Below the pieces are notes generated by a model. It searched no databases. It worked only from the letters and a program-made list of their open reading frames with translations, and was not told the origin of the DNA. Shown piece after piece: positions 3 to 49,186 of a stretch of 64,000 bases of DNA. The stretch lies in IMG/VR virus record IMGVR_UViG_3300027861_004723, one strand, 5' to 3'. The stretch comes from an uncultured virus (IMG/VR IMGVR_UViG_3300027861_004723). Its lineage: Duplodnaviria; Heunggongvirae; Uroviricota; Caudoviricetes. The translations under genes were made by a program, and so were the position numbers. Position 1 is the stretch's first letter, and every line of letters starts with the position of its first letter.

Positions 3-2555
3 GCCTATCGAAGTATCCGGAACATCAATACCTTCTAGTAAAGCCTCAACACTTAGCATGCATCTTACACGACCCTTATTACTTGAAAATGATTCCATCA
101 TCTTTCGTCTAAGCTGCGACGGCTGTTTAGAGTGGTAATTCCCAAAAGGGATCAAATACTCTTCATCTGTGTGGGAAGTAAAAGAGTAGTCATCACTCAT
201 AAAAGGATAAGCAATAAACTCCCCGGCCATCCAATCATTAAAGAGAAGGGTATAAAGTATATTCATCGGTCTTACGCGTTTATGGAAGCATATTACCTTT
301 TTGCCCTGAGATAACGCTTGTTTGATTAGGCAATAGGCACTAACTATGCGTGCTGGGTCCATCCAAGAATATTCTCTTTTAAGCGCTCTTTCCGCTAAGC
401 TGCTATCATTATCAATTTCATGAAATATTGTTGGTGCAGTATATAACCAAGTTAGATTAAAATGAGAAATTGTTTGCATTGCCAAAGCCCGAGGTAGGTC
501 ATATTTAGCAATAAGCGGGCCGCATTGCTCCTCTAGGATATCCCATCTCTTAGAAATCTCTTCTTTTTTTGATAAAGCATCATGATCATCCTCGTCTACG
601 TCATTAGTGTTTGGTAGTGTCGCAGAGACGCCCAAGGTGTATTTGTGGTGATAGGTTGAGGGCTTCCCCTTTAGGCACGGATAATCTCTAGAGTGATCCC
701 CTATCAGGACACCCAACACTCTCCTGCTAGACGCGGAAGTTGCACGATGGGCCTCATCCAAAATAAGGAAATTTTTAGCCACGCCCCGTTTTATGCTTAC
801 CCGGCATTCTAGCTCATCAATAGCGGATGCGTAGGTCATAATTGCAATACTGCCAGGAGCTAAAATAGTTTTAGGATTTCTCTTTATAGGTGTGATCCTG
901 CCAACTACTTTGCCTTCCGCCTCTGACCAGGAGGTTAGATCAGGATGATAGGATCTTATCTTGCTTTCTCCGAAAGTATATATCACTGAACGCGAGCCGA
1001 TATCCTCATCCCTTTTTAGGTTTTCCAACCACTGCCCCACTAGGGCATTAGTAGGAACCATAATGGTTACTGATATGCGCTTCTTCTCTTCGTAAAGAAG
1101 ATGCTTTATAGCACCAATGCATAACCTAGTCTTTCCCGCCCCTGTCACTGCCTCAACTAGACCTCTATATTTCGATCTAGTTGTAAGTTTTATCTTCCTA
1201 TTTTTCTTATTTCGAGCATAGGGAGTTATGCCCTTCCATCTATCTAGAACCCTAGCTTGCCATGCATACCGTAGCGAGCCGTCTTCTGCGTCCTCTACTT
1301 CTCTTTTCGTGAATAGGGAAAGTAAGCTACTTCTTGCTGAACCGGCAGGAGGCTCTACGGCGATTGGTATACCATCTGGCCCTCCTCGTATTATCTCAAT
1401 TTGATCAGGTTTAATACGAGAGCCTTTAGCTAGCTTCACCAATCCGAACCCACTAAGTAACTTAGCTCTATCCATCTTATAGCAACAATTTTTGAAAGGA
1501 ATTGACTTGTTGTCCGCATATCGAGAACCGCAGTCACAGATCAATACGCTGCCCCGCCCTACACCAGCACTAAGCAGGTCTTTTCTTCGTTCCGACCACT
1601 CAGATCTCTCCCTGGGCTTGTCCTTATTGCCTGATAGTGTCCAAGCATAGGCAAATCTCCTACGATTTTGCTGACTTTCATGGCTGAGACATTTATCTTC
1701 ATCCGTCAAACAATCCTGGCAGGCATCCTCTTCTGGGTAAGCCCAATAATCTGGTATAAATGGGATAGGATATCCTAAGCCGAGATCTGATTGTCTCTGG
1801 GGGCTTGCAAAATCCGATTCTGGGTGTGTTTCCCTTTTTTTATCTGCCCTGCAAGCCAACACCCTATCACACTTCTCTTTAGCTTTAGCCCTCTTGGCAC
1901 CTCTTCTAAGGGGCCTGTTTTTAAGAATACTAATACCATGGCAATCGCAGGAGTGTCTGCGCTTAATTTTCCTAAACTTGGCCTTCGGCTTAAATCGTCG
2001 TCCTCTACGAGACGAGGATCTATCCGACCTTTGCAGTGCTCCTGTTTTTTTCTTAATAGAAAATCCAAGAGATTGGGATTCCACCCAACTATCATCAATT
2101 GGATACCTCGGATCATAGGGTATGTGCTTAAACCCCCATTTGTTTTTAAGAATATTTCCAGGAACCCTACCTTCTACGGAGTCAGGCTCCTGCTCCCACT
2201 TACATATCCAGTCGCTATTTACCTTATTTATTATTCCTAATTGCACAGTTACTAGTTCGTAAAGATCATCAATAGATAGATTTTTAAAATACAAAGGAAG
2301 TCTGTCGTACCAGCTAGAAGGCTTAAAGGCAATAGATATAGGATCCAGATCAGCTACTACCTTTATATCTACTATATCACCATTTTTTTCGTATCGTGGA
2401 ATCCAACCAAATGCTTTAGCATTCATCAGTATTTGCTGAAGAAGATATGCTTTTCTAAGTTTGATGTCCTTAGATCTTTGTCTTCTAGCATCCGCTTCAA
2501 GCGGCCCATCCCCATAATCTGCAGGAAAGGGGATCGGATTATCATGATAGTACAT
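3..2555 (-). CDS. SF2 (DEAH-box, XPB/SSL2-like) helicase with long N-terminal extension; runs off the left edge of the window
   Basis: Absent from the ORF track (no stop in window). Manual translation from ATG 2555 (MYYHDNP...) is open to position 3 and contains AVTGAGKT (Walker A), ILDEAH (Walker B), GVSAT (motif III) and LEGIDVPD (motif V). Confidence 0.9.
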   Translation of the reverse strand, partial: MYYHDNPIPFPADYGDGPLEADARRQRSKDIKLRKAYLLQQILMNAKAFGWIPRYEKNGDIVDIKVVADLDPISIAFKPSSWYDRLPLYFKNLSIDDLYELVTVQLGIINKVNSDWICKWEQEPDSVEGRVPGNILKNKWGFKHIPYDPRYPIDDSWVESQSLGFSIKKKTGALQRSDRSSSRRGRRFKPKAKFRKIKRRHSCDCHGISILKNRPLRRGAKRAKAKEKCDRVLACRADKKRETHPESDFASPQRQSDLGLGYPIPFIPDYWAYPEEDACQDCLTDEDKCLSHESQQNRRRFAYAWTLSGNKDKPRERSEWSERRKDLLSAGVGRGSVLICDCGSRYADNKSIPFKNCCYKMDRAKLLSGFGLVKLAKGSRIKPDQIEIIRGGPDGIPIAVEPPAGSARSSLLSLFTKREVEDAEDGSLRYAWQARVLDRWKGITPYARNKKNRKIKLTTRSKYRGLVEAVTGAGKTRLCIGAIKHLLYEEKKRISVTIMVPTNALVGQWLENLKRDEDIGSRSVIYTFGESKIRSYHPDLTSWSEAEGKVVGRITPIKRNPKTILAPGSIAIMTYASAIDELECRVSIKRGVAKNFLILDEAHRATSASSRRVLGVLIGDHSRDYPCLKGKPSTYHHKYTLGVSATLPNTNDVDEDDHDALSKKEEISKRWDILEEQCGPLIAKYDLPRALAMQTISHFNLTWLYTAPTIFHEIDNDSSLAERALKREYSWMDPARIVSAYCLIKQALSQGKKVICFHKRVRPMNILYTLLFNDWMAGEFIAYPFMSDDYSFTSHTDEEYLIPFGNYHSKQPSQLRRKMMESFSSNKGRVRCMLSVEALLEGIDVPDTSIG

Positions 2556-2683: not shown

Positions 2684-4324
2684 ATGTGCGGTATATTTTG
2701 TTTTTGGGGCAAGAATCCTCCCAAACAACTACTCCCAGTTACAGAAGCTTTCAAGAGCCTCCAGCATCGAGGCCCTGATAATACACAATTAATACCAACC
2801 AGCGACTCTGGGAATAATGCCGCATTACTGGGTTTTCATCGCCTGGCAATTATGGATACCTCCCCCAAAGGTAATCAGCCCTTCGTAACGAAGGAAGTAT
2901 CCCTAGCCTGCAACGGAGAAATATATAATTCTAAACAGCTTAGAGCACAATATCCAGACTATGATTATCAATCAGACTCTGATTGCGAGGTTATTATCCC
3001 CCTCTACTTAGATCGCGGGATCGAAGGAGCAGCCAGAGCCCTTGATGGCGAATTTGCTTTTGTGCTTTATGACCATAGGGATAAAAAAGTTTATGCTGCC
3101 CGAGACCCTATTGGTATTAGACCTCTTTTTTACGGATTACCACAAGACCATTTGAAGGTAAATCCAGATGACTTTGCCATTGCATTTGCTAGCGAAGCCA
3201 AAGCCCTCTCTAGTTTTTGTGATGACGTTAAGCCTTTTTTGCCAGATTGCTTTTACGATGGCCAAGGAGTCCGCTTAAGGCGAATTGATCGAATAACGCA
3301 TCAACGACCTATCAAGGATACCCTACCAAACTACCTAACTGAGATCAGGACCAAGTTTATAGAAGGGGTAAGAAAACGACTAACTAGCGATGTGCCTTTA
3401 GGGTTTTTGCTTAGTGGGGGACTAGATTCTAGCTTAGTCTGCTCAATAGCAACAAAGCTACTTGATGAGCCTATCACCACCTTTTCAATCGGAATTGAAG
3501 AAAATCCCATCGATGTTAAATACGCCAAAGAAGTAGCAGATTATCTTGGATCAACGCACCATGAAGTCCTGTTTACTGAGCAAGAGGTTCTAGATGTTCT
3601 GGACGAACTAATCTATCATTTGGAATCTTGGGATATCACCACTGTGCGAGCCTCTGTAGGAATGTACCTTTTATGCAAATACATTAGAGAGAAGACGGAT
3701 ATCAAGGTGGTTCTAACTGGTGAGGTTAGCGATGAGCTTTTTGGCTATAAGTATACTGATTTCGCCCCCTCTGGTGAAGAATTTCAAAAGGAAGCTATTA
3801 AGCGGGTCGAAGAGCTGCATGTTTACGATGTCCTACGGGCTGATCGATGTATAGCCGCTCACGGCCTTGAGGCCCGCGTGCCATTTAGTGACAGGGATTT
3901 CGTTAGGTATGTGATGGCAATTCCGGGTGATATAAAGATGAACACTTATGGGATTGAGAAAGCTCTACTCCGCAACGCATTCCATCCAGATTCAGCCAAA
4001 GAAGAGTTTCTCAAGGACAACATTCTATTTCGTGCGAAGGCAGCTTTTAGCGATGCTGTGGGCCACAGAATGGTCGATTTATTGAAAGAAACCGCCGAAG
4101 CTAAATATACGGAAGCAGATTTAAAGAACGCGGAAAAAAGGTATCCTCACTGCCCACCCTTTACCAAAGAATCATTGATGTATCGAGAGATCTTCGCAAA
4201 GCACTTCCCTAACCAGGATAAGCTAATTCCGGATTATTGGATGCCAAATAAAAGCTGGGAGAACTGCGATGTAAGCGACCCCTCAGCCAGGGCTTTGCCT
4301 AATTATGGAAAAAGTGGGAATTAG
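2684..4324 (+). CDS. asnB: Asparagine synthetase B (glutamine-hydrolysing)
   Basis: N-terminal MCGI (Ntn Cys), HRGPD, FHRLAI, NGEIYN, SGGLDSS, GEVSDE, GLEARVPF. Confidence 0.95.
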   Translation: MCGIFCFWGKNPPKQLLPVTEAFKSLQHRGPDNTQLIPTSDSGNNAALLGFHRLAIMDTSPKGNQPFVTKEVSLACNGEIYNSKQLRAQYPDYDYQSDSDCEVIIPLYLDRGIEGAARALDGEFAFVLYDHRDKKVYAARDPIGIRPLFYGLPQDHLKVNPDDFAIAFASEAKALSSFCDDVKPFLPDCFYDGQGVRLRRIDRITHQRPIKDTLPNYLTEIRTKFIEGVRKRLTSDVPLGFLLSGGLDSSLVCSIATKLLDEPITTFSIGIEENPIDVKYAKEVADYLGSTHHEVLFTEQEVLDVLDELIYHLESWDITTVRASVGMYLLCKYIREKTDIKVVLTGEVSDELFGYKYTDFAPSGEEFQKEAIKRVEELHVYDVLRADRCIAAHGLEARVPFSDRDFVRYVMAIPGDIKMNTYGIEKALLRNAFHPDSAKEEFLKDNILFRAKAAFSDAVGHRMVDLLKETAEAKYTEADLKNAEKRYPHCPPFTKESLMYREIFAKHFPNQDKLIPDYWMPNKSWENCDVSDPSARALPNYGKSGN

Positions 4325-7265: not shown

Positions 7266-8795
7266 TTAACCTAGAAATTCCTCTACCCAAAGCAGACCAT
7301 CTTCTTCATTATCGAACAGCCCAGCCTCTTGGGCTGCTTTAGTGGCTTTAAGTATCCTGCCCATTTCGATCCCCTGGATTGCCAGCCCATGAGCAAGCAA
7401 GGTTCCTCCAGTAATAATAGGACGATAGAAGCGATCCCTAATCCAGTTTTCAGCATCTCGCTTAGTATTGATCTTGCACTTAAGCTGGATCTGGTAGGCT
7501 TCCGCAATAATTTTACCCATTCCGGGGCCTGGCTTTACCAAACCACTACTGATCAACATCTTCCCCGTTACTAGCTTCTTTGGCGGGCTAAAGAGAATGC
7601 CATCTTCATCGGCAATTTCCATTAGTCGAATAGCTGTCTCTGGCAACTGTTTAGGCTTTGGTGGTCTGCCGCTGTGATCGGCCTCAATAAGCAGAATTAG
7701 CTCTGCAATACACGCCGGTTTTAGTCTGTAAGAGAGCCTTCTAATAGCAGGAAGCTTCTTAGCATCAATATATGAAAGATGTTCGGCCATCAAAGGCGGA
7801 ACCTTTTCGATAATCTTGTTTAGAGCACCGATAGATGTGAGGAAGTCAACCGCTGTGTCGATACCTTCCACACCATGACCAGGACTGCGATACCTGCCCC
7901 GATCAAAAACAGTCGTAGCATGCTTTCCAATATCGTGGCACAGCGCAGCAAACATCAAAGTAGCTCTTTCTAGCCCTTGCGCCTCTTCTCTGCGTGCAAT
8001 ATCCATTGCAGCATCAACAACGTGTTGGGTATGGATAAAGACATCTCCCTCGGGATGCCACTCGGGATCCTGCGGGGTATCCATTAGATTTTGTAGTGCA
8101 GGATAGGCTTCTATCCAGCCTGTATCAACCAGAAATTGTAGACCGGCTCCTGGGGAGACACTCTTCGTCGCCCACTTATACCACTCACCCCAGATTCTCT
8201 CCGCAGGGAAGGTGTCATACTCGCCCAACAAGGAATAGCACATTTCTGCTGTTTTAGGATCAACAACAAAATTAAACCTACCAGCAAATTGGAATCCCCG
8301 CAAAACTCTTAGGGGGTCTTCAGCAAAGGCAGGCCCTATATGACGAATAATGCCATTACGGATATCCTCCTCACCACCAAAGAAATCTAACATTTCTCCG
8401 GTTCCCAGATCATACATTAGCGCATTGAATGTGTAGTCGCGTCTTGAGGCCGCTTCTTGTGGATCCATGAAAGGGTCTATCTCTACTTCAAACCCTTTGT
8501 ATCCCCTACCGATTTTCTTCTCTCTGCGTGGCATGGCAAAGTCATAGTCATTATCTTTGGTGTAGAGCTTAATCACACTAAAGCTCTTACCTACATCAGC
8601 TTGGACTTTTCCGTATGGCTCAAGAAAATCAGCTAGAATGTCGGGCTGCAGACCAAAAACTTCGATATCTAGATCCTTGGGGTTGAGCCCAAGAACTACG
8701 TCTCGGACTGCACCACCTACGAGATAGCATTTACCGCCTATGGCGGCTATATCCGCAGCAATGGTGAGCAATTCTTGTGGAAAATCAGTAATCAT
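7266..8795 (-). CDS. cca: CCA-adding tRNA nucleotidyltransferase with HD domain
   Basis: VGGAVRD, DLDIE, RRDYTFNA, EDPLRVLRG, HPEGDV..H, HDIGK. Start placed at ATG 8795, 6 nt after TGCTACACT. Confidence 0.92.
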   Translation of the reverse strand: MITDFPQELLTIAADIAAIGGKCYLVGGAVRDVVLGLNPKDLDIEVFGLQPDILADFLEPYGKVQADVGKSFSVIKLYTKDNDYDFAMPRREKKIGRGYKGFEVEIDPFMDPQEAASRRDYTFNALMYDLGTGEMLDFFGGEEDIRNGIIRHIGPAFAEDPLRVLRGFQFAGRFNFVVDPKTAEMCYSLLGEYDTFPAERIWGEWYKWATKSVSPGAGLQFLVDTGWIEAYPALQNLMDTPQDPEWHPEGDVFIHTQHVVDAAMDIARREEAQGLERATLMFAALCHDIGKHATTVFDRGRYRSPGHGVEGIDTAVDFLTSIGALNKIIEKVPPLMAEHLSYIDAKKLPAIRRLSYRLKPACIAELILLIEADHSGRPPKPKQLPETAIRLMEIADEDGILFSPPKKLVTGKMLISSGLVKPGPGMGKIIAEAYQIQLKCKINTKRDAENWIRDRFYRPIITGGTLLAHGLAIQGIEMGRILKATKAAQEAGLFDNEEDGLLWVEEFLG

Positions 8796-8899
8796 AGTCA
8801 TAGTGTAGCATATTTCTAAAAACAGTCTATAAATGATTTAAGACGGCTCCTTGTTTAAAAAAGGATCATTGGTAAAGTAGACGAACCTAGGCGGTTACC

Positions 8900-10705: not shown

Positions 10706-11761
10706 ATGAGTATTTTCGTAGGATTTCCAAAAATCGGCCAGTTTCGCAATGTCGTTCAGGGCCTCACTATGCATGAGCGGTATGCTGGCCGAGATGAAAC
10801 CGGGGAGCCTATCTATGATAGTAATAGGCTACTTCCTAAGCTAGTTTTCAATGGTACTGTTAAGCTGCACGGCACTAATGCAGGGTTCGGGCTTTACAAC
10901 GATGAAGTCTGGTTCCAGAGCCGTACCAGCGTTATTACCCCCGTCAAGGATAACGCAGGCTTCGCTGCTGCTTTTTCCGGAGCAGATAAGCTCAGCTACA
11001 TCAAGCAGACACTTGAGGGCCTCAAGAACCAGCACAACGTAGATGATGACAAAGTCGTTGTCATGTTTGGTGAGTGGTGCGGAGGTTCTATCCAGAAGGG
11101 CGTAGCCCTTAACCAGCTTGATAAGCGTTTTGTGCTTTTCGGCATTCGAGTAGTTGGGCACGAGCGCAACGATGATGGCAACTATACCTACGATGAGTGG
11201 CTGCCAATTTCTGGAGTTAGTAACCACGAAATTGGATTCTACAATGTCGAAGACTACGAGCGCTATGAGTTGTCAGTAAATCTCAATGATCCAAAAGCAT
11301 CTCTTAATAGTATTGAAAATCTCGTTAAGGCTGTTGAGGCCGAGTGCCCTTTCAGCAAGGCTTTTGGTATCTCTGGTCTAGGAGAGGGCATTGTCTGGAC
11401 CACCCTACATAAGGGCACTCGATATGCCTTCAAGACCAAGGGCGAGAAACACGCTAATGTTCGTCAGAAGAAACCAGCTTCCGTTGACCCAGAAAAGGTC
11501 AACAATGTTGCTGAGTTTATCTCTTACTCTGTAACCGAAAATAGGCTTAATCAGGCGATTGAGCAGGTTTTTACTACTCAGAGCATTGAACCTTCCATTA
11601 AGGGAACCGGGCTATTTCTTAAGTGGCTTGTTAATGATATTGTCACCGAGGAGATTGATACTCTTTCTGCTAATGGTCTTTGCGCCAAGGATGTCAACGG
11701 TTCTATCTCCAAGGCAGCACGAACTTGGTTCTTTGAGTATCTCGACAAGCTGGTTTTCTAG
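10706..11761 (+). CDS. RNA ligase, Rnl2 family
   Basis: KLHGTN (motif I), FGEWCG (III), GEGIVW (IV), FKTK (V). Confidence 0.85.
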   Translation: MSIFVGFPKIGQFRNVVQGLTMHERYAGRDETGEPIYDSNRLLPKLVFNGTVKLHGTNAGFGLYNDEVWFQSRTSVITPVKDNAGFAAAFSGADKLSYIKQTLEGLKNQHNVDDDKVVVMFGEWCGGSIQKGVALNQLDKRFVLFGIRVVGHERNDDGNYTYDEWLPISGVSNHEIGFYNVEDYERYELSVNLNDPKASLNSIENLVKAVEAECPFSKAFGISGLGEGIVWTTLHKGTRYAFKTKGEKHANVRQKKPASVDPEKVNNVAEFISYSVTENRLNQAIEQVFTTQSIEPSIKGTGLFLKWLVNDIVTEEIDTLSANGLCAKDVNGSISKAARTWFFEYLDKLVF

Positions 11762-12326: not shown

Positions 12327-13184
12327 ATGACATCTACCGATGAACAGCAGCGTATTGAAAAGCTCACACCCGAACAGGAAGCCCAGCTATCTGTTTACCG
12401 AGATAAGTGGATTGCTATTGGGCTCCAAACCGGTCTTGCTGACCGGGAACGAGCCGAAGCAGGGGTTAAGCTTATCTATGAAGCTGCCGACCTCCCCCAC
12501 CCAGATGAAATTGTCTGGGTAGATTCTCCCTATGCTGGACATAAGAAGGCTAAGGAGTTTACAGATGACCCAAAACCTCTTCATGGGCAGCATTCTGCTG
12601 CCTGGCTCAGCTTCTATGAGTATTTCTATGAGGTTGTGGGCCTAGAGTGTGTGAAACCGCTGGTAGGTTTCTTTGAGGTTGCTAAAAGCGCGGGCTGGTG
12701 GTGGTGCTTTGATAAGCTCGCCATTATGAGCGAGCGGGCCTCCGAGAGCCATATGGATGAGCAAGGGCGTCTACATCGCGAGGCGGGCCCTGCTATTGTC
12801 TACCCAGATGGCTGGGGTGTTTACTCCTGGCATGGCGTGAGGGTTCCAGAAAAGGTAATCATGGACCCGTCCTCATTGACGGTTGATGAGATTCAGGCCG
12901 AGCAGAACATTGAAGTTCGTCGGATTATGATCGAGCGATACGGTGTTGGAGACTTCTTGCACCAGACCAAGGCTGAGATTGTTGATATGGATGCATCGCC
13001 CATTGCTGGTGGTGCCCCTCGTGTCTTGATGCGGGATAGCCAGGGCTTGCAGTTCCTATGCGGGACCGATGGTAGCACCAAGCGTGTCTACTTTATGTCC
13101 GTTCCAGATGATGTCGCTACCTGTAAGGCAGCGCATGAGGCTATCTGTGGCTTCTCGGAAGACCGCTTGGTTGCTGAGTCCTGA
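12327..13184 (+). CDS. DUF6745-like protein
   Basis: GQHSAAWLSFY, GWWW, RLHREAGPAIVYPDG, WHGV, EQNIEVRRIMIERYG. Confidence 0.8.
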   Translation: MTSTDEQQRIEKLTPEQEAQLSVYRDKWIAIGLQTGLADRERAEAGVKLIYEAADLPHPDEIVWVDSPYAGHKKAKEFTDDPKPLHGQHSAAWLSFYEYFYEVVGLECVKPLVGFFEVAKSAGWWWCFDKLAIMSERASESHMDEQGRLHREAGPAIVYPDGWGVYSWHGVRVPEKVIMDPSSLTVDEIQAEQNIEVRRIMIERYGVGDFLHQTKAEIVDMDASPIAGGAPRVLMRDSQGLQFLCGTDGSTKRVYFMSVPDDVATCKAAHEAICGFSEDRLVAES

Positions 13185-13283: not shown

Positions 13284-16200
13284 ATGAACGAAAAATACTT
13301 TCAGGTTTGGCTTGGTTTGCATGAACCTATTTTTGATTACATCTACGATAAAACCCTGCCACCAAAAGGAGAAGAGCCTACATATATTGTGCGAGATTAT
13401 GATACTTGGTGTAGAACCAATGATTTATACGCAGCAGTGTTCAACAGGCTGGAATTCGGAGACTCCTTGATGGATGAGCTAGAAATTTCAAATCACGACC
13501 GGACTTCATTGTTTTGGGCGCTGACGAGGCAGGTTGCCCCCAACCGTCGAGGACGTGCTTAATACGGGCTATTACTTTAGAACAAAAATCGCAGCCATAG
13601 CCTTTCTTCAGCAACATGTAGCACATCCAAGATAAGGAACTAGTATGAACGAAGAAGAACGATGGGATGATACAAAAGAAAACGGCTCAAATATACCTTC
13701 CTCTGAGCCAGATTGGACTGTTAATCCTTTGGATGGCCGCTGCAACTCATCCGAAATGTTCAATATGCTCGTCGTTGAGGTTGGAAAACTGATTCGGGGA
13801 GATGCTCATACTCTGCTAAACGGCCACGCCGACAGCACTGCTCGCCTTATCGTGGCCCAGCTTGCCCATAAATACAAGCTACAGCCAAATTTGCAAGCTG
13901 TCCATGATGAACGACAAGAAGCTATCGATGCTATTGAAGCTGAGTTTCTAAAAATTCCCAATGTCCCTTTTGCCAAAGCCAATGTCGTAGTCCACGTAAC
14001 AACAGACTACACTTCGGATGAACCTCTTCGAGATGATGGAACACTAGGAAACGGAACATTAGAAGATCTGCAACCCATTTTCGACGCCGAAAGCGATATG
14101 ATAGATCGCTTTCCTACTATTCATTTCGATTTTAACTCAAAGCGCGTTGGAAAAATATGTAACGATGAGGATGATGAGGATGATGAGTGATCCAGGTTGT
14201 CAATTCAAGGGTTGCTTTAATACAGACCCTACCAGTTCTTTGGGGTGGATTACCGTAATAATCTTGACAGACCATAAAAGACAATTTTGCTGTCCTGCCC
14301 ACGCTATCTACTATATATCTCATCCAGAAAAACATGATGCTGATCCTAACGACGAGATAATAGATCTGAATATTACTGTGTGAGGCAAAGAATGCTACAA
14401 GAAGAAAAATGGGAAAAAACCAAACAGGAACTTAAAGCTGCCAATAGGTCGTTGTGGGATTTCGGCCTTAGTCTGTCTTTTGAAGAAGAAGCTGATTTTC
14501 GAACCTACTTGTCTAATAACGAGCTAGGGCTTGCTTGGGAATTACTTCGTGATAAGTTTCTAGGACATAGCCCCTTCCTAAAACAAATGATGCGGGCTGC
14601 AAACTTAATGCAGCTGTCCGACCCTTTCGGCACAAAAGGGGAAAGAGATTCCGATGGCCAAAGTAATGATTCAAACGACAATTGACTGTGAAGTAAATTC
14701 ATCTGAAGCTGCCCACCAGCTAGGTCGCGAACTCGAAGATAGATTACACTCAGTCATCACACAACTTCTCCCAAACCTACGCTACGCAGAAAACATAAGA
14801 GATGGGAGCATTCGCTTTCACCTAGAAATCACTGGAAGACGGGTTACCATCTCAGCCCCCGAAAAAGCTAAAGATAAATAAAATGGACATTGATGGTCCA
14901 AGCTACCGCGCAACACTTCAAGATGCAGAAGACTGCCTTCTTCGCCCGCCTCGTCCAAAATTCCCCTGGCCGATGATGTTAGTGCTGCTAGTTTTTGCAT
15001 TTATGATGGTTTATGCTGGTCAAAAGGTCGAAACACTTAGATACGAAAATAAATTGCTCCAAGCAGAGCTAGACACGCTTAAAGGTGACAATAATGACAA
15101 AAGATGAGTGGATTCAAAAGGCCAAAGCTCTCTTTTTCGATTGCACTTTTTGTGTTGATTCCAGTGGCATCCACAAAGAGATTGACGAGCTTCTCAAAGA
15201 GGGTGGTGGCTATGATTATAGGGTTGAGAGCGCCAAAACACCCCTAAAATGGGCAGGAAACTCTGATGATGAGTAATAAACAGCCGTTCACATACAAAGC
15301 TAAAAACGGTAATTTTTTTAGTGCGAAACAATGCGACTTCAATGAACCAATTTTTGCCCATTATCCCCAAAAAGACGGAGACGGAATATCGCGACCAATC
15401 GGGTTTGATACCAAAGGTTTGACGCCTCTTGAGATATCAGAAATTCTCATTGAAGATGGTCAACAAAAACTGATGGCTGATGTTGCCGAAATGATTGGTT
15501 ATCATGCAATAAATGTTCTTCCAAAATTGAAGGATTTTCAAGGATATGATAGCCTTCATTTTATTATTTGCCGTAATTGTGAACAGTGAGGTAGGTTGTG
15601 AGAAGAGAAAAATGTGAATTCTGTCCTGGCACTGATCTGCTGCGGGTTTGGGTAGATAAAGCTTACCGCAGGGGTGGAACTACTTATGAACGCGAGGATG
15701 GGGAGTATTGGATTGCTGATGAGTTCAACTTAGATCTTGATAACCCTTTGCCGGGGATTCTCGATGGCGGATCGGTTGACATGGTGGTATGTCTCGACTG
15801 TCAGAGGATCCAGGGCTTCGCCCTGACTGCCGAGCAGAAAGCCGCCCTTATTGCGGAGCACATCAAACACGGGCACAACCCTCTCGAACGTCAGCGGGAA
15901 AAAGATGCAGAAAAGGCAGCACGTAAAGCCGAACGCGAAGCAAAAGAAGTACTTTATGCCGAGTGGCGAAAAGGCCAACCACCACGGGAGTTATAATGAA
16001 GAAAGGGTATATAGTTCACTATTGGGGCGAGGTTGCTGTTGAAGAAGTCAGTATCTTCTCAGAGTTTGTGTTTGATGGTCGAGAATATTATGCTCTTCAA
16101 AAACAACACATGATCTGGTCGTCAGTTGGTGGTCCGAAAGAAAAGCCTAACTATCAAAACACGCACCCCCTCGCCCATATGCTAAAAAATCCTCAAGAAT

Positions 16201-16400
16201 CAGATTTTCAATACGAGAGAATTTTTCTATCATTAGACGAAGTAAAGAAAGAAATTAGAAGTCAAACACCCAAGCAAATAGAAGAAGCAGAAAGACTAAT
16301 GCTTAATTGTAAGCGTAATTTAGAAGCTCTCAACAATCTAGATTTAGATACTATTCCCAAAGAAGATTACACCTCCCTTTTTACTGGAAAACCCACTTAA
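13284..16400 (+). CDS. Run of about 10 short hypothetical genes (13284, 13645, about 14180, 14380, 14654, 14883, about 15094, 15266, 15598, 15996)
   Basis: Tightly packed, overlapping co-oriented ORFs; some with CxxC pairs. Confidence 0.6.
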
Positions 16401-16489
16401 ACAGGAAGAACAAAGAAAGGCTCTAAAACGGTGCAAATATTTGTGACAACCAAGGGTTGCCTAGAGAGTCAGAGAAGTAGGAGGCTAAC

Positions 16490-16807
16490 ATGCTAATCAA
16501 AGGAGGAGAGTATCGTAAAATCCGGGTTCTCAAGGACATCGAAAGAGAAAGTTATTGCACCGGAGAAATGATGAGCTGGAAAGCTGGCAAATTTGAGGAA
16601 GGCTACGTCGATGAGCCAGGGCGGCGGGCTGAGATAAATTGGGGCTGAGGACAGATAACATTGCTCTTCGTGGAAGGGTATTCTGAGGACGGTAAAGTTT
16701 CGGGGGAATTTGAAATAATGGAACCGGGTAGCTGTGAAAACTGCACCTGGCAAGAAGATGGCCAGTTTTTAAGTGCATGTGATGCATGTGATCGGTCGAA
16801 TCACTAA
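16490..16807 (+). CDS. Candidate selenoprotein (105 aa, in-frame TGA at 16646-16648)
   Basis: AGGAGG RBS; frame stays open for 52 codons past the TGA to TAA; SECIS-like hairpin 16652-16685. Confidence 0.65.
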
Positions 16808-16825
16808 AACTAGAAGAGTAAAATC

Positions 16826-16891
16826 ATGCCTGCTTATCACTTAACAACACCGATTTATTACGTTAATGCCGCGCCGCATATTGGTCATGCC
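16826..16891 (+). pseudogene. metG: 5' fragment (22 codons) of methionyl-tRNA synthetase
   Basis: MPAYHLTTPIYYVNAAPHIGHA matches the MetRS N-terminus with the HIGH motif; similarity ends abruptly and the ORF stops at 16945. Confidence 0.85.
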
Positions 16892-16901
16892 CGGATCCAA
16901 C

Positions 16902-17108
16902 TCAACTTGAGTTACATGAAGCTTCAAACAAAATACCTAGAATAATAGCTATCTCCCCAGCAGGGACAACTAGCAATTCTGAAACTCCAGACACAGTCAT
17001 ATCGACCCCGGATCTAGACGCTAGCACCTGTACTGGGATATTTTCAAGACGATCCGAAGCTAGAGTATTTTGGGTTAATTGTTTATTTCTGATCAGAGCC
17101 TTTGCCAT
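16902..17108 (-). CDS. Short, possibly truncated protein
   Basis: TGCTATACT promoter and AAGGAGG RBS upstream; ends head-on with the metG fragment. Confidence 0.6.
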   Translation of the reverse strand: MAKALIRNKQLTQNTLASDRLENIPVQVLASRSGVDMTVSGVSELLVVPAGEIAIILGILFEASCNSS

Positions 17109-17221
17109 ATGTTTACCTCCTTAGAGTATAGCAAATTATTATATATCTAACATCAAATTTGCGCGATCACTCTAGACTACTACAAATTTAAAACAAGAGC
17201 TATATTTGGTATGATACTAAC

Positions 17222-17812
17222 ATGCACAGAGAGCCCAAATTAATTCAACTACCTCCGCAGCTTTTCGTTGGCCCTGGGGTAGAATCTGAAAAAATGACCC
17301 CAGCAACTAATACGGCCAGTGGTTGGATTAAGCCCGAAGGCGGTTTGTGGACTTCTACTTACGACCCAGAGTGCGGAAGCGGATGGGTTCAGTGGAGTAT
17401 GGGGGAGCGGTTCCGGGTTGAGTGCGATGACGATTACGAAACTTGCTATTTTGATTGTTCCATTCTTTACCCAAAACCAGCTAGAATTCTTATAATTGAC
17501 ACCCACCAAGATTTGGTAGATGCTATACAAGATTACCATTTTGTAGGATCAGAACCTCGTTCCTACTATGCCGAGGATTACCTAGATTTTGAAGAAATAG
17601 CAGAGGACTATGATGCTGTTCATCTGACGGATCGTGGTCAGTGGAAGACCAGAAGAACACGCCCGGGATTATATGGGTGGGATTTAGAGTCTACTGTATG
17701 GTTAAGATGGATGTTTTCTGAGGTCGAACATATAGGAAGAGTTGGCTTCAGCAGTTGTGATATGTCAGCCACAGAAGAGAAAAAGTTAAAAATGCTGGGA
17801 TTGTTCCGATAA
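17222..17812 (+). CDS. Conserved hypothetical phage-type protein (KPxGGLWTS / YDAVHLT / YGWD motifs)
   Basis: Well-formed ORF; TGGTATGAT 6 nt before ATG. Confidence 0.7.
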   Translation: MHREPKLIQLPPQLFVGPGVESEKMTPATNTASGWIKPEGGLWTSTYDPECGSGWVQWSMGERFRVECDDDYETCYFDCSILYPKPARILIIDTHQDLVDAIQDYHFVGSEPRSYYAEDYLDFEEIAEDYDAVHLTDRGQWKTRRTRPGLYGWDLESTVWLRWMFSEVEHIGRVGFSSCDMSATEEKKLKMLGLFR

Positions 17813-17867
17813 CGCTAACTTAGCGCTGATCCTTGATCTTTGAGCCCCGCTCCTATACAATAGCTCT

Positions 17868-20800
17868 ATGCCGAAGATATCCCAGGACCTTATTCAGTCA
17901 GATACCCATTTCCTAAAACTAGTAGCCACCCTAGAAGATAGCAACAAGCCAGATGAATGGCTTCTAAAAATCCACGTAAGTGGAGTCGAGAGAGAATTTC
18001 TAAGCGATACTGTAACTCGATCAAAGGCTATAGAGTATGCAACACAATTCGAGAGTTGCGTAGAAGCAACGACCAAAGACTCGGTAACTAGCGCATTAGA
18101 AAATGTTTTACGAGATTTCGGAAATAGATCCAGTAGGGGCCGTAAATGACCACCAGAACAATCCTATTCTCCAGCGGTGAGTACTCCGACTACGGCCTTT
18201 CCGGTTTCCTAGAAATTGACTCCGATGCTTATCAAAAAGCTAAGAGCGAGTGCGAAAAACTAATAGAAGAAGAAAAAGCCATCAAAAAGAAGGTAGCCGC
18301 GAGATCTAAAGAAGAGGGTGCCACCCGTAAAGAGCTTCAAGAGATGGCTCGGGGTGGTGATGCGCTGAGGCAAGAACGGCGAGATATTTGGTGGAATCTT
18401 AGAGAGACTGGTAAGCCAGTGCCTTTCGAAGAGTTTTGGCACGGAGATGCTTACTAATGAGCCAGTTAAAAACTGCAGATTGCCGTAAATGGCTTGCTAC
18501 CGACGACGACATTCAAAATCTAGTTAAAGACCGGTATGGCTGGTCCGATAATATCGAAGATATGCTTGAAATGTGTGATAATGATCAAGATGAAATAGAT
18601 CAAATAAATGATGTGGTAGCGCAAGCCGCTAAACCTAAAAATTGGAAAAGATACACCAAATTTAAGCTGGGCTCCGAGACTGACCAAAAAAATTGTGATT
18701 ACGGACTACTGTTTCCTGGTGAAGGTGTAGTTCGCCAATTCAACCTTGATGACACCGAAATAGCTGTCATGATCCTTGAGCAAAACGGCAAGCTATCCTT
18801 CTTAAACGATTTGAGTGATTAATGGGTATGCCGACACCTGATGAGATCGACTCTATGATTAAACAAGCAGCATTTGGCTGTTTTATGTTCGTAGTGTTTC
18901 TCGTTTCTTGCGCCTTTCTCCTTGGCTATACTTGGGCTTAATATGACTAATATAGAAGAACTTGAGCTATCCGAACTTGATACCAAGTCTTTTGAGGCAC
19001 TGGGCGCTGCTTGGTTTGCTGAAAATACCAAGCGCAACCCTCTTCCTACGACACAAGACGTGCATGATGCTCACAACAGGGCATTCTACGAGCCATGTGA
19101 GTGCTTCCAAGAATGCTGCGATGAAGATACTTGCGATAAGTGCCATGGAAGTGGACTTGCTGCGATGAAGGCTTGCGCTACGTGCAAAGGCATGGGCCAA
19201 TACTTTATTCCAGATAGTGTTGCTAATGAATCAGCAGGCGGGCATATAGACAAAGATGGGAACTGGGTTAAAGGCACTAACCAGAGAAGTATACTACATA
19301 ATGAGTGTAGCGATAATGAGAAAAAGCTCTCAAAGGAGGCCCGCCTTGAAATTTTTGTTGGATACAGCAAAAGTTTTATGGCAGATGATGTCTTTGAATT
19401 CTTCAAAGGTGTCATAGCTAACCTGGGAGCAAAATTAGAAATGCACCCAATCTATGAATGGGATCAAAGCATGGTAGTCTACATGCCTAATTACCCTAAC
19501 AAGAAGTGAACAATGAAATTAAAGATAGTAGCACCTGGCGAGCCCTGTAACCGCAATACTGTTGAAGCTGAGATTGCGGGAACAGTTACTTTGTCTGAGG
19601 TATTTGCGGGAATTAGTATTGTCACAGAAGATGACGGTGCCACTGGATCCCAAAGATTCGGAATTGTGCAAAGAGACTCGGGGCTAGAAATATATTGCCC
19701 TGATGGGGCCATGCTTGAAATAGGAATTACTGACTCTGGTGAGACGTGTGTAAAGGCTTACACTGCTAGCTGTCCCAAGTGGGCTGGTCAACCAGAAGAC
19801 GGAAAACAAGAAAACTAAAATGGGCCGACAACGCACCAAAATCACACTAGAAGATCATGTAGCCTTATATTGCTCTCTATGGCCTGGCGTGCAAGTAGGT
19901 AGTGACGTACGAGTACAAACCAGCCAAGAAATAGAAGAATTCATCTGGACTTGCCTAGATGGCGATTCCCGCCGACCTACCAACATGTCTTTTAGAGCCC
20001 GCGCAGGATTAGTAGCCCGAGGAAGAAGCGCATATCAGTTTGTAGCATCAACCCTACAAGCACAAATTAGCCAAGACACAAAACGGAGAAATAAATATGA
20101 CTGAGAAAACTAAGTTGCTACCCGAGAATGGGCATTCCGTTCACTTCTCCGAGCCCACCGGCAACGTGACCATCGGGTCTGCAAAGGTTCGCCACATTCC
20201 GATCTACTCACCACGCCACTTTGATAACTACCGTGAGGAGGCACGTTTGGTGATGAAAGTGCTCAAAGGCGAGTGCAGCAAGGAGGAGGCACTAACCCTC
20301 CCAGAGTTCAGCTATAATGCCTGCGGCTTGAATACTTTTCTTGCCGCATTGGCTTATGAGATCCTAGAAGGGGAGCAATGACCTTCGAAGACCTAAAACA
20401 AAAAATCGTCGCAGTCGTCAGCCCCTATCATACAATCAATGGCAATGATGAAAATGGATGCCCCTATCTCTGTTCATCATGCAGAGATAGGCGACGTATC
20501 CGAGACAAAGTAAAACAACTTTTTGAAGAATATGAAAACCCGGCGTCCCTTGATTCTTGATAACGTAACTTACCACGACATCGGATATGATGGCTCCCTA
20601 GATGACCTAAGCGAGCTACAATGCTTCGGCCCACGACCGGGCGCTGGGCCTGCCCTAGATGGTGTAGAAATTTTTGTCAAAAACAAAGAGCTAATGGCAC
20701 GGCACAATAACGAGATATTTGAAATCAACTTGTGCGAAGGATGCTATGAAAGTATCATTTGCAAATTACTAGAAAAGACACTATGACCTGCATCACTGAT

Positions 20801-22633: not shown

Positions 22634-23035
22634 ATGTCGTACATTAAACCTGGTGACGCTATCATAAGAAAGAAATTCGGTTTCTGGGGCAATTTCTATA
22701 TTCACTGGGGGCTTTACATAAGAGATACCGAGCCGGAGATCATCGAGAAACAAGATATTGGGGTTCGGCAGATAGCTTTTGGTCGATTTCATAAAGATAT
22801 GCCCTACACAGTAATACCCTATACCGGCGATGATCCTAGAGAGCTTGTAATAGAGAGAGCCCTAGCCCGCGCCGACGATAAAAATTTTGCTGCGCTAAAT
22901 GATAACTGCGAAAGTTTTGTAAAGTATTGTCAAACAGGCAAAACACCGATAAGCCGCCAGATTACTGCTAGTTTAACTTTAATTGCGATAGGATTCCTAG
23001 CTTTACTCTGGGCTATTATACAGATAATTTGGTAA
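22634..23035 (+). CDS. LRAT-like permuted NlpC/P60 protein with C-terminal TM
   Basis: HWGLY ... NCESFV catalytic motifs in permuted order; hydrophobic tail; TGCTATCAT 6 nt before ATG. Confidence 0.8.
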   Translation: MSYIKPGDAIIRKKFGFWGNFYIHWGLYIRDTEPEIIEKQDIGVRQIAFGRFHKDMPYTVIPYTGDDPRELVIERALARADDKNFAALNDNCESFVKYCQTGKTPISRQITASLTLIAIGFLALLWAIIQIIW

Positions 23036-23044
23036 TATATCTGT

Positions 23045-24517
23045 ATGAGAAGACGAAGAAATCCTCCCAAGAGAAGAAAATGTGGTAACTGTGGAAGAAC
23101 AGGCCATAATTCCAGAACCTGCACGTATAGTAGTAGATCAAGTAGATCAAAACCAACCTCCAGAAGACGATGTGGTACTTGTGGTGGGATAGGGCACAAT
23201 GCTAGAACCTGCACCGCAGGCAGAACCCAACAAACCCAGCAAACCAGACAAACCAGCCACACTCAAAGTCGTAGCAGACAATCCTCTTCCTCAGAATCTC
23301 GCAACCTCCAAGAGATTTTTGATAACCTAAACGATGAGTATTTCCAAGGACGGCTTACCTGCTCTATCCGCTGGACTACCAGCGTTATCACTAGTATGTG
23401 GGGATATTACGAACCAGGAAGAAACCGTATAACCCTAAACCGAGTTTACCAAAGTCCGGAAATACCTTTCTACTGTCTAGAAAGCACAGTTTATCATGAG
23501 ATGGTTCACGCCGACGTGCCGGTATATCGCGGAGCCAACGGTTGCCGGGTAATACATGGTCCAGAATTCAAGCGTAGAGAGAAGCTTTATAGACACTATC
23601 ATGAATCTAAAGCATGGAAAAAGGCAAATGGTCACTACATTATGGACAAAGAATCCGGGGCCACCACAATAGAAACATATGAAGGATTACGCGTAGGGCA
23701 AACCTTTGTTTTCCGTGGAACAAGTTTTACTATCATTAACTTCAAACCAAGTCAGTGGAAGTATCCAGTTATGGTACAAAATGCCAGAGGAACTGTATAT
23801 AAGATGACTCTAGCTCAAGTTAAAGGAACACCCACCCCACCTCGAACTTCCCAAACACACACCAGAAGACGCCCCAGAGCAAGCAGTTCCGTGCAATCTT
23901 TTGACGGCCTTGAGGTTGGAGATACTTTTACTGTTCGCAGAACTACCTATACCATTGTTGGATTTAAGGCTAGTCGTTGGAAGTATCCTGTAACTGCCGA
24001 AGGCCCTCGTGGTGGCAAATGGAAATTCACTCTTGCCCAAGTAAAAGGGGGTAGAAGAAGAAACCCTCAAGGACTAGACCCACAACAACTAGTTTGTGAG
24101 ATCGATTATGATGACCCAGGACATCAAGGCGATGTTATAGAAGAACACGATACTGCAAATCGCAGACATCGTAGACGTAGAAACCTACACAGACGTAATC
24201 CATTCACCTGTAATCCAGAACTAGATGTATGCCCAGTCGATCATGATGACCCAGGACATCGAGGCGATGTTATAGAAGAACATGACGCTCACCGGAGAAA
24301 CCCCAATGCGACAGAACTGTCAGACCAGGGAATCTATTACATGGGGGACAGATCCTCATTCATAGAGGAGTGCAGCGAACTAGAGACTATAAACTACGAT
24401 CCCTCTTTTTGGGGCGGGCCTGGTTATTACCAATTCGATTATGATAATCACCGAGCCCACAAGATAGACTCCCCACGGAGGAGAAACTCCAAAAGAAGAA
24501 AGCGCCACTATGGCTAA
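23045..24517 (+). CDS. Multidomain SprT-like metalloprotease with two Zn knuckles, duplicated small beta domains and RRNP motifs
   Basis: CxxCxxxGHxxxxC twice, HEMVH...HGPEF, two G.TF......TI..FK.S.WKYPV repeats, two DDPGH.GDVIEEHD repeats. Confidence 0.8.
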   Translation: MRRRRNPPKRRKCGNCGRTGHNSRTCTYSSRSSRSKPTSRRRCGTCGGIGHNARTCTAGRTQQTQQTRQTSHTQSRSRQSSSSESRNLQEIFDNLNDEYFQGRLTCSIRWTTSVITSMWGYYEPGRNRITLNRVYQSPEIPFYCLESTVYHEMVHADVPVYRGANGCRVIHGPEFKRREKLYRHYHESKAWKKANGHYIMDKESGATTIETYEGLRVGQTFVFRGTSFTIINFKPSQWKYPVMVQNARGTVYKMTLAQVKGTPTPPRTSQTHTRRRPRASSSVQSFDGLEVGDTFTVRRTTYTIVGFKASRWKYPVTAEGPRGGKWKFTLAQVKGGRRRNPQGLDPQQLVCEIDYDDPGHQGDVIEEHDTANRRHRRRRNLHRRNPFTCNPELDVCPVDHDDPGHRGDVIEEHDAHRRNPNATELSDQGIYYMGDRSSFIEECSELETINYDPSFWGGPGYYQFDYDNHRAHKIDSPRRRNSKRRKRHYG

Positions 24518-29142: not shown

Positions 29143-29735
29143 TATTTATCTTCCTTAACATAGATCAAATCACCCAGGATAGCCACGCCATCGCAAATAC
29201 TTTCTTCCATGCCATAACTAGTGTTTCCTTGCCAGTAGGATCGTGCCCAACTAGAAATTTCATCTTTAGCTCTTTCTCGGGCAGCAGTGTTAAGCCACCG
29301 ACTAGGTGCGCCACCATACATATTCCCCCCCAGGGCCCGCATGCAATCTTGTCTAGCTTCCGTCCACATTTCGGAATCGGTCGTAAAGATAGTTCCAGAA
29401 AATAGAACCTCATAAACATGAGTTCTCGCAGACCACTCACTGGGTTTACTGCAGAAGCCGCTATCAAGTTTAGGGCATAGGAATATGCAACCTATACGTG
29501 AAGGCGCTTCCGGGTTTGTTTTGATTCTTACCTCGTCAAAGACATCTTCTTGGAAGTTCCAAATCTTGTAGTGAACAAGCATCTCTGGATCAGCGTCAAT
29601 AGGCGGATCACTGCCCAGCCCTTTGAATTTGGGGACAAATTCTAAATCACAGGGGCCTTTAGCAGCCCAATACATAATTTGATCTTCGACGTGGTGGAAG
29701 CCAGGCTCTGTAACATCTGGGTTATATCTATACAT
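29142..29735 (-). CDS. DUF2441-like (putative ADP-ribosyltransferase fold) protein, starts MYRYNP
   Basis: FDEVR...P.APSRIGCIF, VYEV, YW.G, E; start coupled by a TAATG overlap. Confidence 0.55.
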   Translation of the reverse strand: MYRYNPDVTEPGFHHVEDQIMYWAAKGPCDLEFVPKFKGLGSDPPIDADPEMLVHYKIWNFQEDVFDEVRIKTNPEAPSRIGCIFLCPKLDSGFCSKPSEWSARTHVYEVLFSGTIFTTDSEMWTEARQDCMRALGGNMYGGAPSRWLNTAARERAKDEISSWARSYWQGNTSYGMEESICDGVAILGDLIYVKEDK

Positions 29736-37488: not shown

Positions 37489-37896
37489 ATGACTAAAACC
37501 AGAATCAAATCTCAAGTTCGGCTCACGGGTTCTGTAGATCCCGAACACATTACTAAACAGCTAAAAATGGAAGCCGATGAAACTTGGAAACTCGGTGATA
37601 AGATGGCCCATACCTGTCGTCGCCATAAAGACAACGGCTGGGAGCTTACATCGGGATGGGAGGATTCCTCGGATCTTGGTGAGCAAGCCAAGAAAATCCT
37701 TGATCGAGTCAACTATAGGATTGGTATCTTAAAGCAGTGGGCAGCTAATAACCGCCAAACACTTGATATGGAACTATCTTGTTGCGTTGAGTTGTGCGAC
37801 CAAGCCCCATCAATCAACTTTGGTCCTGTCTTGCTAGAGCGAGCCGCTAGTTTAGGGATGACCATTGACGTCGATATTATTCAAGTCGCGAATTAG
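37489..37896 (+). CDS. DUF4279-like protein
   Basis: DPE.IT..L...ADE.W..GD, W.L.S, C-terminal IDVDI; TGGTAATAT 6 nt before ATG. Confidence 0.7.
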   Translation: MTKTRIKSQVRLTGSVDPEHITKQLKMEADETWKLGDKMAHTCRRHKDNGWELTSGWEDSSDLGEQAKKILDRVNYRIGILKQWAANNRQTLDMELSCCVELCDQAPSINFGPVLLERAASLGMTIDVDIIQVAN

Positions 37897-46589: not shown

Positions 46590-47630
46590 ACTGATACAAA
46601 CTTGCAACAAACTTGCAACAGCAACAGTAAGTTTTCAAAATTGCAACAGTTTGCAAAAGTTTGCAAAAAGTTGCTATAAGTTGTTTGTTTTCAACACCTT
46701 AGCGGTTACCACAAAGGGGATAGTCGGTGTAACCTACTGTCATATAAGGACTTATGACGAAACATATAATCTGCACCGGGGGGATGGGGGATGAGACGCC
46801 TGCGTCGGAAAAGCAGACTTATAGGACGCAACCGCTTGTAAACAGCTTACCAGAGCTTTGATACATGCTTAAAACGCTAAATGCACGTATACATGCACCT
46901 TTTAAGGCAAAAACGCGCTAAAAACAGCGTTACGTTGCACAAAGCTAGTAACTATGCTAATCAAAACTACGTTTCGGAATTGTGCGTGTTTGTTATCACG
47001 TTTGCTATAAAAACGCTTAAAAAGGGCCATTCTGGGCGTCGGTTTTCGGAGATGTTCGGGTTTTATTAGGTTTGGGGTAGGTTCGGGCGCTAGTTAGGGG
47101 TAAGTTAGGGTCTGGGCCTCGATGTTCGGGGTAGGTTAGGGTCCAGTGGCCCCCTACCAGTGGCCCCATATAAGGACTTAGGGCATAGTGGCCTAAACCA
47201 CTATCCCATATAGGGTTACGCTAAGGGTTGACCAGTGGTCTAGGCCATGATACCTTATAGGCAGTAGAGGACCGCTGGCCCCGTCCAGTGGCCCCTACCA
47301 GTGGCCCCAGGGGGGCGCTACCAGGGGGTCCAGTGGCCCCTACCAGTGGCCCCAGGAGGGCGCTAGGGGGTCCAGTGGCCTAAGCCTTTATCCCCCACCA
47401 CTTTACGCTAAGGGTTGCACTGGCCTAAACCCGTGGTATCTTATGGGTATTGGAGGGGTGTAGAGGCTTAGGCCAGTGCCCCCCAGGAGCCCAGGAGGGC
47501 GTGACACTGGCCCCAACCAGGGGCGTAGTATAGAGGGATAACCCCAGGAGCGGCCTAAGCGCCTATCCCAAGGCCCCTAAAGGACTTAGAGGAGCGGGGA
47601 GATAATCTCAACGCTAAGGGTTGTTTGAGC
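46590..47630. repeat. Non-coding repeat block (TTGCAA repeats, AAAACGC tracts, CCAGTGGCCCC repeats, ACGCTAAGGGTTG x3)
   Basis: No credible ORF; CCAGTGGCCCC(C)TACCAGTGGCCCC at about 47143, 47286 and 47330, plus single copies on both strands. Confidence 0.8.
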
Positions 47631-47684
47631 GGAAAAGCCGCTTACCCTATGGGCAGTGAAGAAGAACCACCAACGGAGAATTGA

Positions 47685-48008
47685 TTGAATATCAAAGCGT
47701 ATCTAACCGCCTTTCATAGCGAGGACGATAAGGGTCAAGTAAAGGTCCGCCCTATTCGGGTGCCTCAGACGATCTTAGCGGGCCTTGACAGCGAGGACAC
47801 CAACGCGCTGCTAAACGAGGCGTTCCGCTACGGGCAAAACGATTTCCAGCCTGTTGAGGGCTGCTACTCGCTCTCTGTGGGCGACGTGGTGGAGCTAGAC
47901 CCCGCTCGCCGCTATCGAGTCGCGTCGTTCGGATTTAAGCCGCTAGCGCCCTCTGACGATCCCGTGGCGCTAATCGGCTGGGACGCCCAGCAGGCTGGCC
48001 GGGGTTAG
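47685..48008 (+). CDS. YodL-like domain protein
   Basis: YSLSVGDVVEL....YRVASFGF; GGAG RBS. Confidence 0.55.
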   Translation: MNIKAYLTAFHSEDDKGQVKVRPIRVPQTILAGLDSEDTNALLNEAFRYGQNDFQPVEGCYSLSVGDVVELDPARRYRVASFGFKPLAPSDDPVALIGWDAQQAGRG

Positions 48009-48168
48009 TCCTTACGCTCTTTGCCCCCTATCCGTTTACCGGGTAGGGGGCTTAGGGCGATGCCCAGTAAAGGGTAGCACCGAAACGACTTAGAGATAAT
48101 CGGCGCTATCACTTGACTGGACAACGAGTCGGGTTTAAGATTGGCGACAGACGAGCAGGGAGGCTCTT

Positions 48169-49056: not shown

Positions 49057-49186
49057 GCCACTATCCCCCGCCCCGCTGCCCCCTACCAGCCCGACGCTGG
49101 TAGGGGGCTTAGGGCGATGCCCCTTATCTTGACAGGGATTGGTCGGCAGGCGATAATACCCACTAACCCAGCAAAAGGAGCCAAAC

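Follow-up and report, generated by a model that had tools for sequence, protein, structure and literature searches.

The locus lies at positions 16490 to 16807 of a 64,000-nucleotide stretch of uncultured-virus DNA, the whole of which we call the window. It consists of an open reading frame that is divided halfway by an in-frame TGA (Table 1). The AGGAGG in front of this frame is the strongest Shine-Dalgarno site of the 39 listed starts, and the next ATG downstream of the terminal TAA is found at 16826. We re-read in the sequence the anatomy given by a preliminary description of this DNA (AGGAGG, 52 codons, TGA at 16646, 52 more open codons and TAA) and found it correct. Translated across the break, the frame yields a product of 105 residues (P0001) that reads E-I-N-W-G-U-G-Q-I-T at the TGA, with the local motif W51-G52-U53-G54, and carries the cysteine pattern C82-x2-C85-x11-C97-x2-C100 near its C-terminus.

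The two halves of the frame differ in how they are recorded. The 52-amino-acid product of the first half (P0021) occurs in exactly this form among the recorded proteins of 18 contigs, which reach up to 368,768 bp in length, whereas the protein collection has no entry in which this second half forms a separate gene. The preliminary description had also seen no obvious ribosome-binding site for the 3' half, and this statement needs correction: a GAGG that overlaps the TGA, followed by an in-frame TTG, forms a possible start for the second half. The RNA ligase gene at 10706 begins with a signal of the same geometry, 10-nt spacer included, and two bases of the TTG lie inside the 5' arm of the hairpin described below.

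Table 1. Features of the interrupted gene and annotated genes elsewhere in the window, in order of position.
Feature	Position	Strand	Evidence or remark
Asparagine synthase	2684-4324	+	Asn_synthase, 1e-70
CCA-adding tRNA nucleotidyltransferase with HD domain	7266-8801	-	
RNA ligase	10706-11761	+	phrog_548, 1e-56
DUF6745	12327-13184	+	
AGGAGG Shine-Dalgarno site	16479-16484	+	Read directly; ATG 16490 lies 5 nt downstream
First half, 52 codons, ending ...E-I-N-W-G	16490-16645	+	Product P0021
In-frame TGA, candidate Sec codon U53; alternatively leaky or true stop	16646-16648	+	
Rival start signal: GAGG 16647-16650, 10-nt spacer, in-frame TTG 16661-16663	16647-16663	+	
Second half, 52 sense codons and TAA (16805-16807)	16649-16807	+	Starts G-Q-I-T
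SECIS-like stem-loop, upper and lower stem	16652-16685	+	
Four-Cys zinc-ribbon-like motif, CxxC...CxxC	16733-16789	+	
LRAT-like	22634-23035	+	
SprT-like	23045-24517	+	
810-aa protein with NADAR domain and weaker NUDIX-like PHROG match	29735-32167	-	
DUF4279	37489-37896	+	

The genes of the window are mostly of unknown kind, and those that could be named are accessories typical of phages; no structural phage genes were recognised in the 64 kb. The window is part of a very large marine element of huge-phage size, as inferred from the presence of P0021 on the 368,768-bp contig. The block between 14 and 20 kb seems rich in small cysteine-knuckle proteins: a small ORF at 15598-15996 (plus strand) has a paired CxxC (CEFC...CLDC), and another at 18922-19509 (plus strand) reads CDKCHGSG...CATCKGMG and looks DnaJ-like by eye. 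The plus-strand ORF that directly follows the interrupted gene (16826-16945) starts with MPAYHLTTPIYYVNAAPHIGHA, which resembles the N-terminus of methionyl-tRNA synthetase with its HIGH motif. Its match to Pfam tRNA-synt_1g (E = 0.0014) is below the cut-off, the homology extends over 16842-16891, and beyond it the sequence departs from the synthetase, the ORF ending after 39 codons in all. A large number of contigs from other organisms match just 16842-16891 and differ from 16890/16891 onwards; because these foreign contigs share only this segment, we consider the ORF a 5' fragment of a metG-like gene.

The TGA is the same in four other assemblies. Over 16400-16900, TGA included, the window agrees at 100% identity with L001, a metagenome contig of 7,666 bp, and contigs of the runs X7 (record 9), X8 (record 16) and X11 (record 2) span the codon with 0 differences, so that the TGA, for which the preliminary description had called for support from reads, recurs as the same codon in these further records. 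Run X13 matches solely a conserved stretch further downstream. In total, 15 public marine or seawater runs from nine named studies contain the whole or part of the stretch, 10 of them with at least half of its sampled words, and no RNA run is among these 15. No sequence variants were seen in the aligned contigs of four runs, some runs covering the stretch in parts only.

Elsewhere in the window TGA is an ordinary stop, as had been stated: it ends 27 of the 79 non-overlapping ORFs between 1 and 47 kb and 30 of 112 window-wide. The TGA at 16646 is the sole in-frame TGA within a plausible gene of the window. We also considered genetic code 4 (TGA read as Trp) or another reassignment and rejected it; the longest ORFs remain nearly unchanged when TGA is treated as a sense codon.

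The last part of the window (47000-64000) stands apart in composition. From about 47 kb the G+C content is 0.51-0.61, against 0.42-0.50 before, A strongly exceeds T, and TGA ends 3 of 33 ORFs compared with the 27 of 79 before this point. None of the 12 ORFs tested in this part has a Pfam or PHROG match, and reassigning any one stop codon leaves its ORFs short. This part may be a foreign module, the product of a chimeric assembly or a region of unusual coding.

Relatives of the protein were sought by an exhaustive HMMER scan of 1.84 billion representative proteins, which returned 12 matches at E <= 0.001. We kept nine of them as a family and left out P0003, P0011 and P0012, which are repeat proteins with compositional matches. 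The nine comprise seven ORFs that correspond to the first half only, all ending in N-W-G or D-W-G, one that covers just the second half (P0013, whose called start precedes the window's TTG by one column), and one full-length protein of 100 residues (P0004), which matches on both sides of the break in one uninterrupted alignment and has the sequence VNWG-C-GQ there. A word-indexed protein search found a single relative of 57 residues that ends in ...EINWG. Cluster look-ups added three first-half-only forms, a second full-length protein with Cys at the TGA column (P0015, NWG-C-GQ) and a 106-residue protein from a 746-bp contig (P0016) that reads VNWG-W-GQITLLF... The W of the latter may reflect a gene call under translation table 4 or a real TGG.

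The preliminary description had named homologues with Cys or TGA at the TGA column as the observation to look for, and a non-Cys residue there or a loss of similarity at the TGA as observations that would speak against its proposal. The two unambiguous full-length relatives, P0004 and P0015 (83% identical over the first-half columns), carry Cys in this column, W takes its place in P0016, and all three align across the break. ORFs that end exactly at the column are found in 11 relatives forming eight clusters at 90% identity; with that of the window itself, nine clusters carry the break versus one fused Cys cluster. On the reading favoured below, the stop of these relatives would likewise be TGA. 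Identity among the first halves of the family ranges from 32 to 98%, and the form nearest to P0004 and P0015 is the first-half-only P0008, at 53-60%. As judged from these alignments, the break dates far back and its position is exact.

Among the four full-length sequences the column is preceded by 20 invariant positions out of 52 and followed by 19 out of 52. They comprise N50, W51, G52, G54, Q55 and all four Cys of the CxxC...CxxC motif, the Cys being kept also in P0013. Because the two halves are about equally conserved, selection acts on the second half as well, which must therefore be translated. The cysteine at position 23, which had been put forward as a partner of the residue at the TGA, fared differently: it is present in the sequence of the window alone, one of 15 aligned. 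Directly behind the column the window and P0016 (about 77% identity) share a run of 16 identical residues. We considered this run as the footprint of a selenocysteine insertion element (SECIS) and dropped the idea; a run of 14 identical residues is also found at the C-terminus, so that runs of this kind are nothing unusual at such an identity.

At the DNA level, the collections scanned yielded the family only as identical copies. Scans of viral contigs gave chance matches or none (L002-L015 are non-members by translation), scans of genome contigs found none, and the metagenome scan found only the identical copy L001. P0001 had no tblastn match in isolate phages or in plasmids, the single match of P0015 in isolate phages (E = 0.3) falls within a tape-measure gene, and blastn of 15000-19000 against phages gave no match. 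Searches of Pfam, PHROG and PDB sequences with the whole protein and with each half gave nothing significant, the match of the four-Cys tail to Pfam DZR_2 having an E-value of 0.09.

An AF2 model of the first half alone has a pLDDT of 83.7 and five beta strands. The model of the full protein has a pLDDT of 70.4, with values of about 48-53 in the four-Cys tail. In these models the fold is an SH3-like beta barrel followed by a four-Cys zinc-ribbon-like tail. The best Foldseek E-value of the full model is 0.1, and its best VIA match is the C-terminal domain of 2akl (Z 4.4, rmsd 2.7, 60 residues aligned), followed by many SH3 domains at Z 3.2-4.1, Z-scores of a size that the tool itself describes as common. 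Against the full model, SH3 and PhnA-like chains cover residues 6..79, with Z up to 4.4; against the first half by itself, the same chains match along only some three quarters of their length and Z stays at 3.2 or less. 2gnc_B, for example, is aligned over chain positions 6..60 with the full model and 6..47 with the first half. This weakly suggests that the modelled barrel depends on strands behind the break to be complete. In the protein atlas all leads were below 0.9 and pointed to SH3-like or DUF4926 models with TM scores of about 0.45-0.53.

The hairpin that the preliminary description had placed behind the UGA, with a GUG loop 21 nt after it and two G-U pairs, is present as claimed. Its 5' arm (16662-16669, UGCUCUUC) pairs with the 3' arm (16673-16680, GAAGGGUA) over 8 bp and closes the loop 16670-16672, and an optional lower stem joins 16652-16655 to 16682-16685. 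The calculated energy is -6.6 kcal/mol for the hairpin and -8.3 kcal/mol with the lower stem. The consensus model for bacterial SECIS elements is that of Zhang and Gladyshev which, in the part of the summarising paper available to us, has a loop of 3-9 nt, an upper stem of 4-16 bp, a G within the first two loop positions at 16-37 nt from the UGA, and a minimum free energy of <= -7.5 kcal/mol (PMC13188914). The stem-loop 16652-16685 fits this model in all its constraints.

However, 321 of the 1910 UGA triplets of the window (17%) fit the same model. A perfect hairpin of equal quality stands behind 82 of these triplets (4%) and is found at 5-6% of positions when every 7th base is sampled, and the 65-nt fold at the TGA has a z-score of -0.49. 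The proposal of a SECIS-like hairpin thus holds as far as the fit to the bacterial model is concerned, while the structure is within what chance provides in this DNA. Rfam gave only a chance snoRNA match near the site (E = 3) and no family in the whole 64-kb window, and no transcription terminator was found at 16652-16685.

Taking these results together, we favour the reading that 16490-16807 forms a single gene of some 105 codons, belonging to an unnamed family of small phage proteins, and that UGA 16646 is decoded as selenocysteine (Sec); we put its probability at roughly 0.4. To the same degree we hold that this may be the first phage selenoprotein gene and the representative of a new family, marked by N-W-G-U-G-Q and spread over at least nine marine lineages, in which the Sec form would be the rule. 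The stem-loop 16652-16685 would then be the SECIS and would bind SelB-GTP-Sec-tRNA(Sec) of the host or of the phage as the ribosome nears the UGA. Sec would be inserted into N-W-G-U-G-Q, the most conserved motif of the protein, between the modelled strands five and six, and ribosomes that do not insert Sec would release the 52-residue N-terminal fragment. As a guess, the Sec or Cys residue could act in redox chemistry or in metal binding, together with the four-Cys cluster close by. The Sec machinery would, on this reading, be accessible to the phage; selA, selB and selD domains were absent among the 60 ORFs scanned in the 64-kb window of an element of at least 369 kb, and the window holds no tRNA, tRNA-Sec included.

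Sec insertion, as originally proposed, draws support from the Cys at the column and from the similarity that continues across the TGA; it is weakened by a hairpin within chance expectation, by the W form, by the possible TTG start of the second half and by the lack of conservation of Cys23. Cys in relatives where the window has TGA is the classical Sec/Cys signature. It is not decisive, as Cys forms are also expected, though less strongly, from a fusion or a split of genes, TGA and TGY being one base apart. More in favour of Sec is that the conserved G54-Q55 precede the one candidate codon for a restart, in a stretch that, as a non-coding spacer, would be expected to drift freely. A second half that is as conserved as the first and hence translated, yet is never called as its own gene, also counts for Sec. 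Against it, the W of P0016, if a real TGG, speaks against an essential Sec, a partner of the CxxU/UxxC type is absent at U53, and the first half is modelled with higher confidence than the whole protein. In most Sec/Cys families the Cys forms outnumber the stop forms, the reverse of the nine clusters versus one seen here, and this ratio would require Sec-decoding hosts for all these phages.

Two coupled genes are a serious alternative, somewhat less probable than Sec. A 52-amino-acid protein A (16490-16648) would end at the TGA, and ribosomes would restart at TTG 16661 via the GAGG to make a 48-amino-acid zinc-ribbon protein that associates with A; the hairpin would mask the TTG until the terminating ribosome opens it, and the Cys and W forms would be secondary fusions that arose by a single base change in the stop. 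Such an arrangement works without Sec machinery and takes TGA as the normal stop that it is in this window, where chance in-frame adjacency also occurs (for example, 18922-19509 followed by 19513). The match of the start signal to that of the RNA ligase gene, the existence of P0013 with its start next to the TTG, the confident five-stranded model of the first half, and nine break clusters versus one fused Cys cluster, as expected for an ancestral boundary, all agree with it. However, G54-Q55 would lie in the spacer and are nevertheless invariant among forms that are only 43-47% identical, and the best-conserved motif of A would be its extreme C-terminus, at a fixed length in 12 sequences. The gene calls also fit badly, with no separate second half for this phage against a first half on 18 contigs, and one second-half-only against seven first-half-only proteins among the nine family matches of the HMMER scan. 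In addition, a TTG behind a 4-base Shine-Dalgarno sequence is a poor start and, as a weak argument, the modelled barrel needs the strands behind the break.

A programmed leaky UGA, read by a near-cognate tRNA (Trp or Cys) to give a minor 105-amino-acid product beside the 52-amino-acid one and with little importance of the inserted residue, seems unlikely to us. Near-cognate reading of UGA gives Trp or Cys, and both W (P0016) and C (P0004, P0015) are seen at the column; a stop kept in nine clusters in front of a conserved in-frame second half would suit a two-product design, the first half is predicted to fold confidently alone, host Sec machinery would be unnecessary, and phage Qbeta offers a precedent. 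On the other side, the column lies within the most conserved motif, which suggests that the residue matters, the W of P0016 is equally well explained as a table-4 call on a 746-bp contig, and a low yield of the long form fits poorly with the equal conservation of the halves. We also know of no bacterial context that promotes readthrough beyond the neighbouring bases. Translation through UGA 16646 by some means, Sec or other, is on balance probable. An error of sequencing or assembly, or a gene in decay after a recent nonsense mutation, is usually behind an isolated in-frame stop of a short hypothetical ORF; here it is very improbable and in our view already refuted. The TGA is the same in L001 and in three further runs from different studies and years, and the second half retains its invariant positions with all four Cys. 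An error is rejected, as is a reassigned code, because the TGA recurs, TGA is common as a stop and ORF lengths do not change, and a recent nonsense mutation is excluded because the break is exact and old in 11 divergent homologues of eight clusters. Readings beyond these four share a small remainder.

If UGA 16646 indeed encodes Sec, the expression of a phage gene would be tied to the selenium status of the host and to the specificity of its SelB, so that host range would have a determinant of a new kind and host prediction a new marker. The phages would depend on a Sec-decoding system or carry one, the fold would be new to the selenoproteome, and gene callers would split such genes systematically, as in the first half called on 18 contigs and the second on none. 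Sec decoding is known from cells and, according to the portion of the literature available to us, from a few poxviruses with a captured cellular glutathione peroxidase (PMC8310308). If instead one of the rival readings is true, the locus would be a clean natural case of conserved programmed UGA readthrough or of a split barrel with coupled translation.

Among known systems, the closest are the bacterial genes decoded by SelB and SECIS, such as E. coli fdhF. Like them, the locus has a UGA within a frame that codes before and behind it, homologues that carry Cys in its place, and a stem-loop that follows the UGA immediately on the 3' side, here with a 3-nt loop starting G-U and an 8-bp upper stem; in the sequence features compared it agrees with this class, of which it is a candidate member. 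It differs in having a phage-like carrier, an unnamed family with a modelled fold of SH3-like and zinc-ribbon-like parts, no CxxU/UxxC motif and more stop forms than Cys forms. The A1 protein of phage Qbeta is a UGA readthrough extension of the coat protein, so that a short and a long product are made, and shares with the present locus a phage gene, a conserved UGA and an in-frame extension. Qbeta, however, is an RNA phage and inserts a Trp without a chemical role, whereas the homologues described here have Cys in a conserved motif.

PhnA-like proteins consist of a zinc ribbon and an SH3-like barrel. PhnA/YjdM-like proteins (PDB 2akl, 2akk) and SH3 domains match the full model best in structure; sequence similarity is absent, the order of the domains would be reversed, the Z-scores are in the common range, and no function is transferable from this resemblance.

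We found no report of a phage selenoprotein in the full-text literature searched, outside of which such papers may exist, and the words 'phage', 'viral' and 'virus' are absent from the accessible part of a 2026 review of prokaryotic selenoproteomes. The only link between phages and Sec decoding in the literature searched is a putative tRNA-SeC gene of Basilisk-like Bacillus phages, a tRNAscan-SE prediction (PMC6145125). In that case, as far as the available sections of the paper go, a tRNA is predicted and no selenoprotein gene is reported, whereas the window has a candidate gene and no tRNA (PMC6145125).

Viral selenoproteins are, in the sections of the source at hand, represented by the glutathione peroxidase of the poxviruses molluscum contagiosum virus and fowlpox virus, the latter with its SECIS within the coding region (PMC8310308). 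Common to these and to the present locus is a virus gene with a UGA that is read as Sec by host machinery, putatively so in our case. A cellular counterpart of the family described here was not found in the HMMER protein scan or in the scans of genome contigs. The poxvirus enzymes, as described in those sections, belong to eukaryotic viruses, derive from captured cellular genes and use a eukaryotic SECIS, whereas the element proposed here is of the bacterial type and a candidate (PMC8310308).
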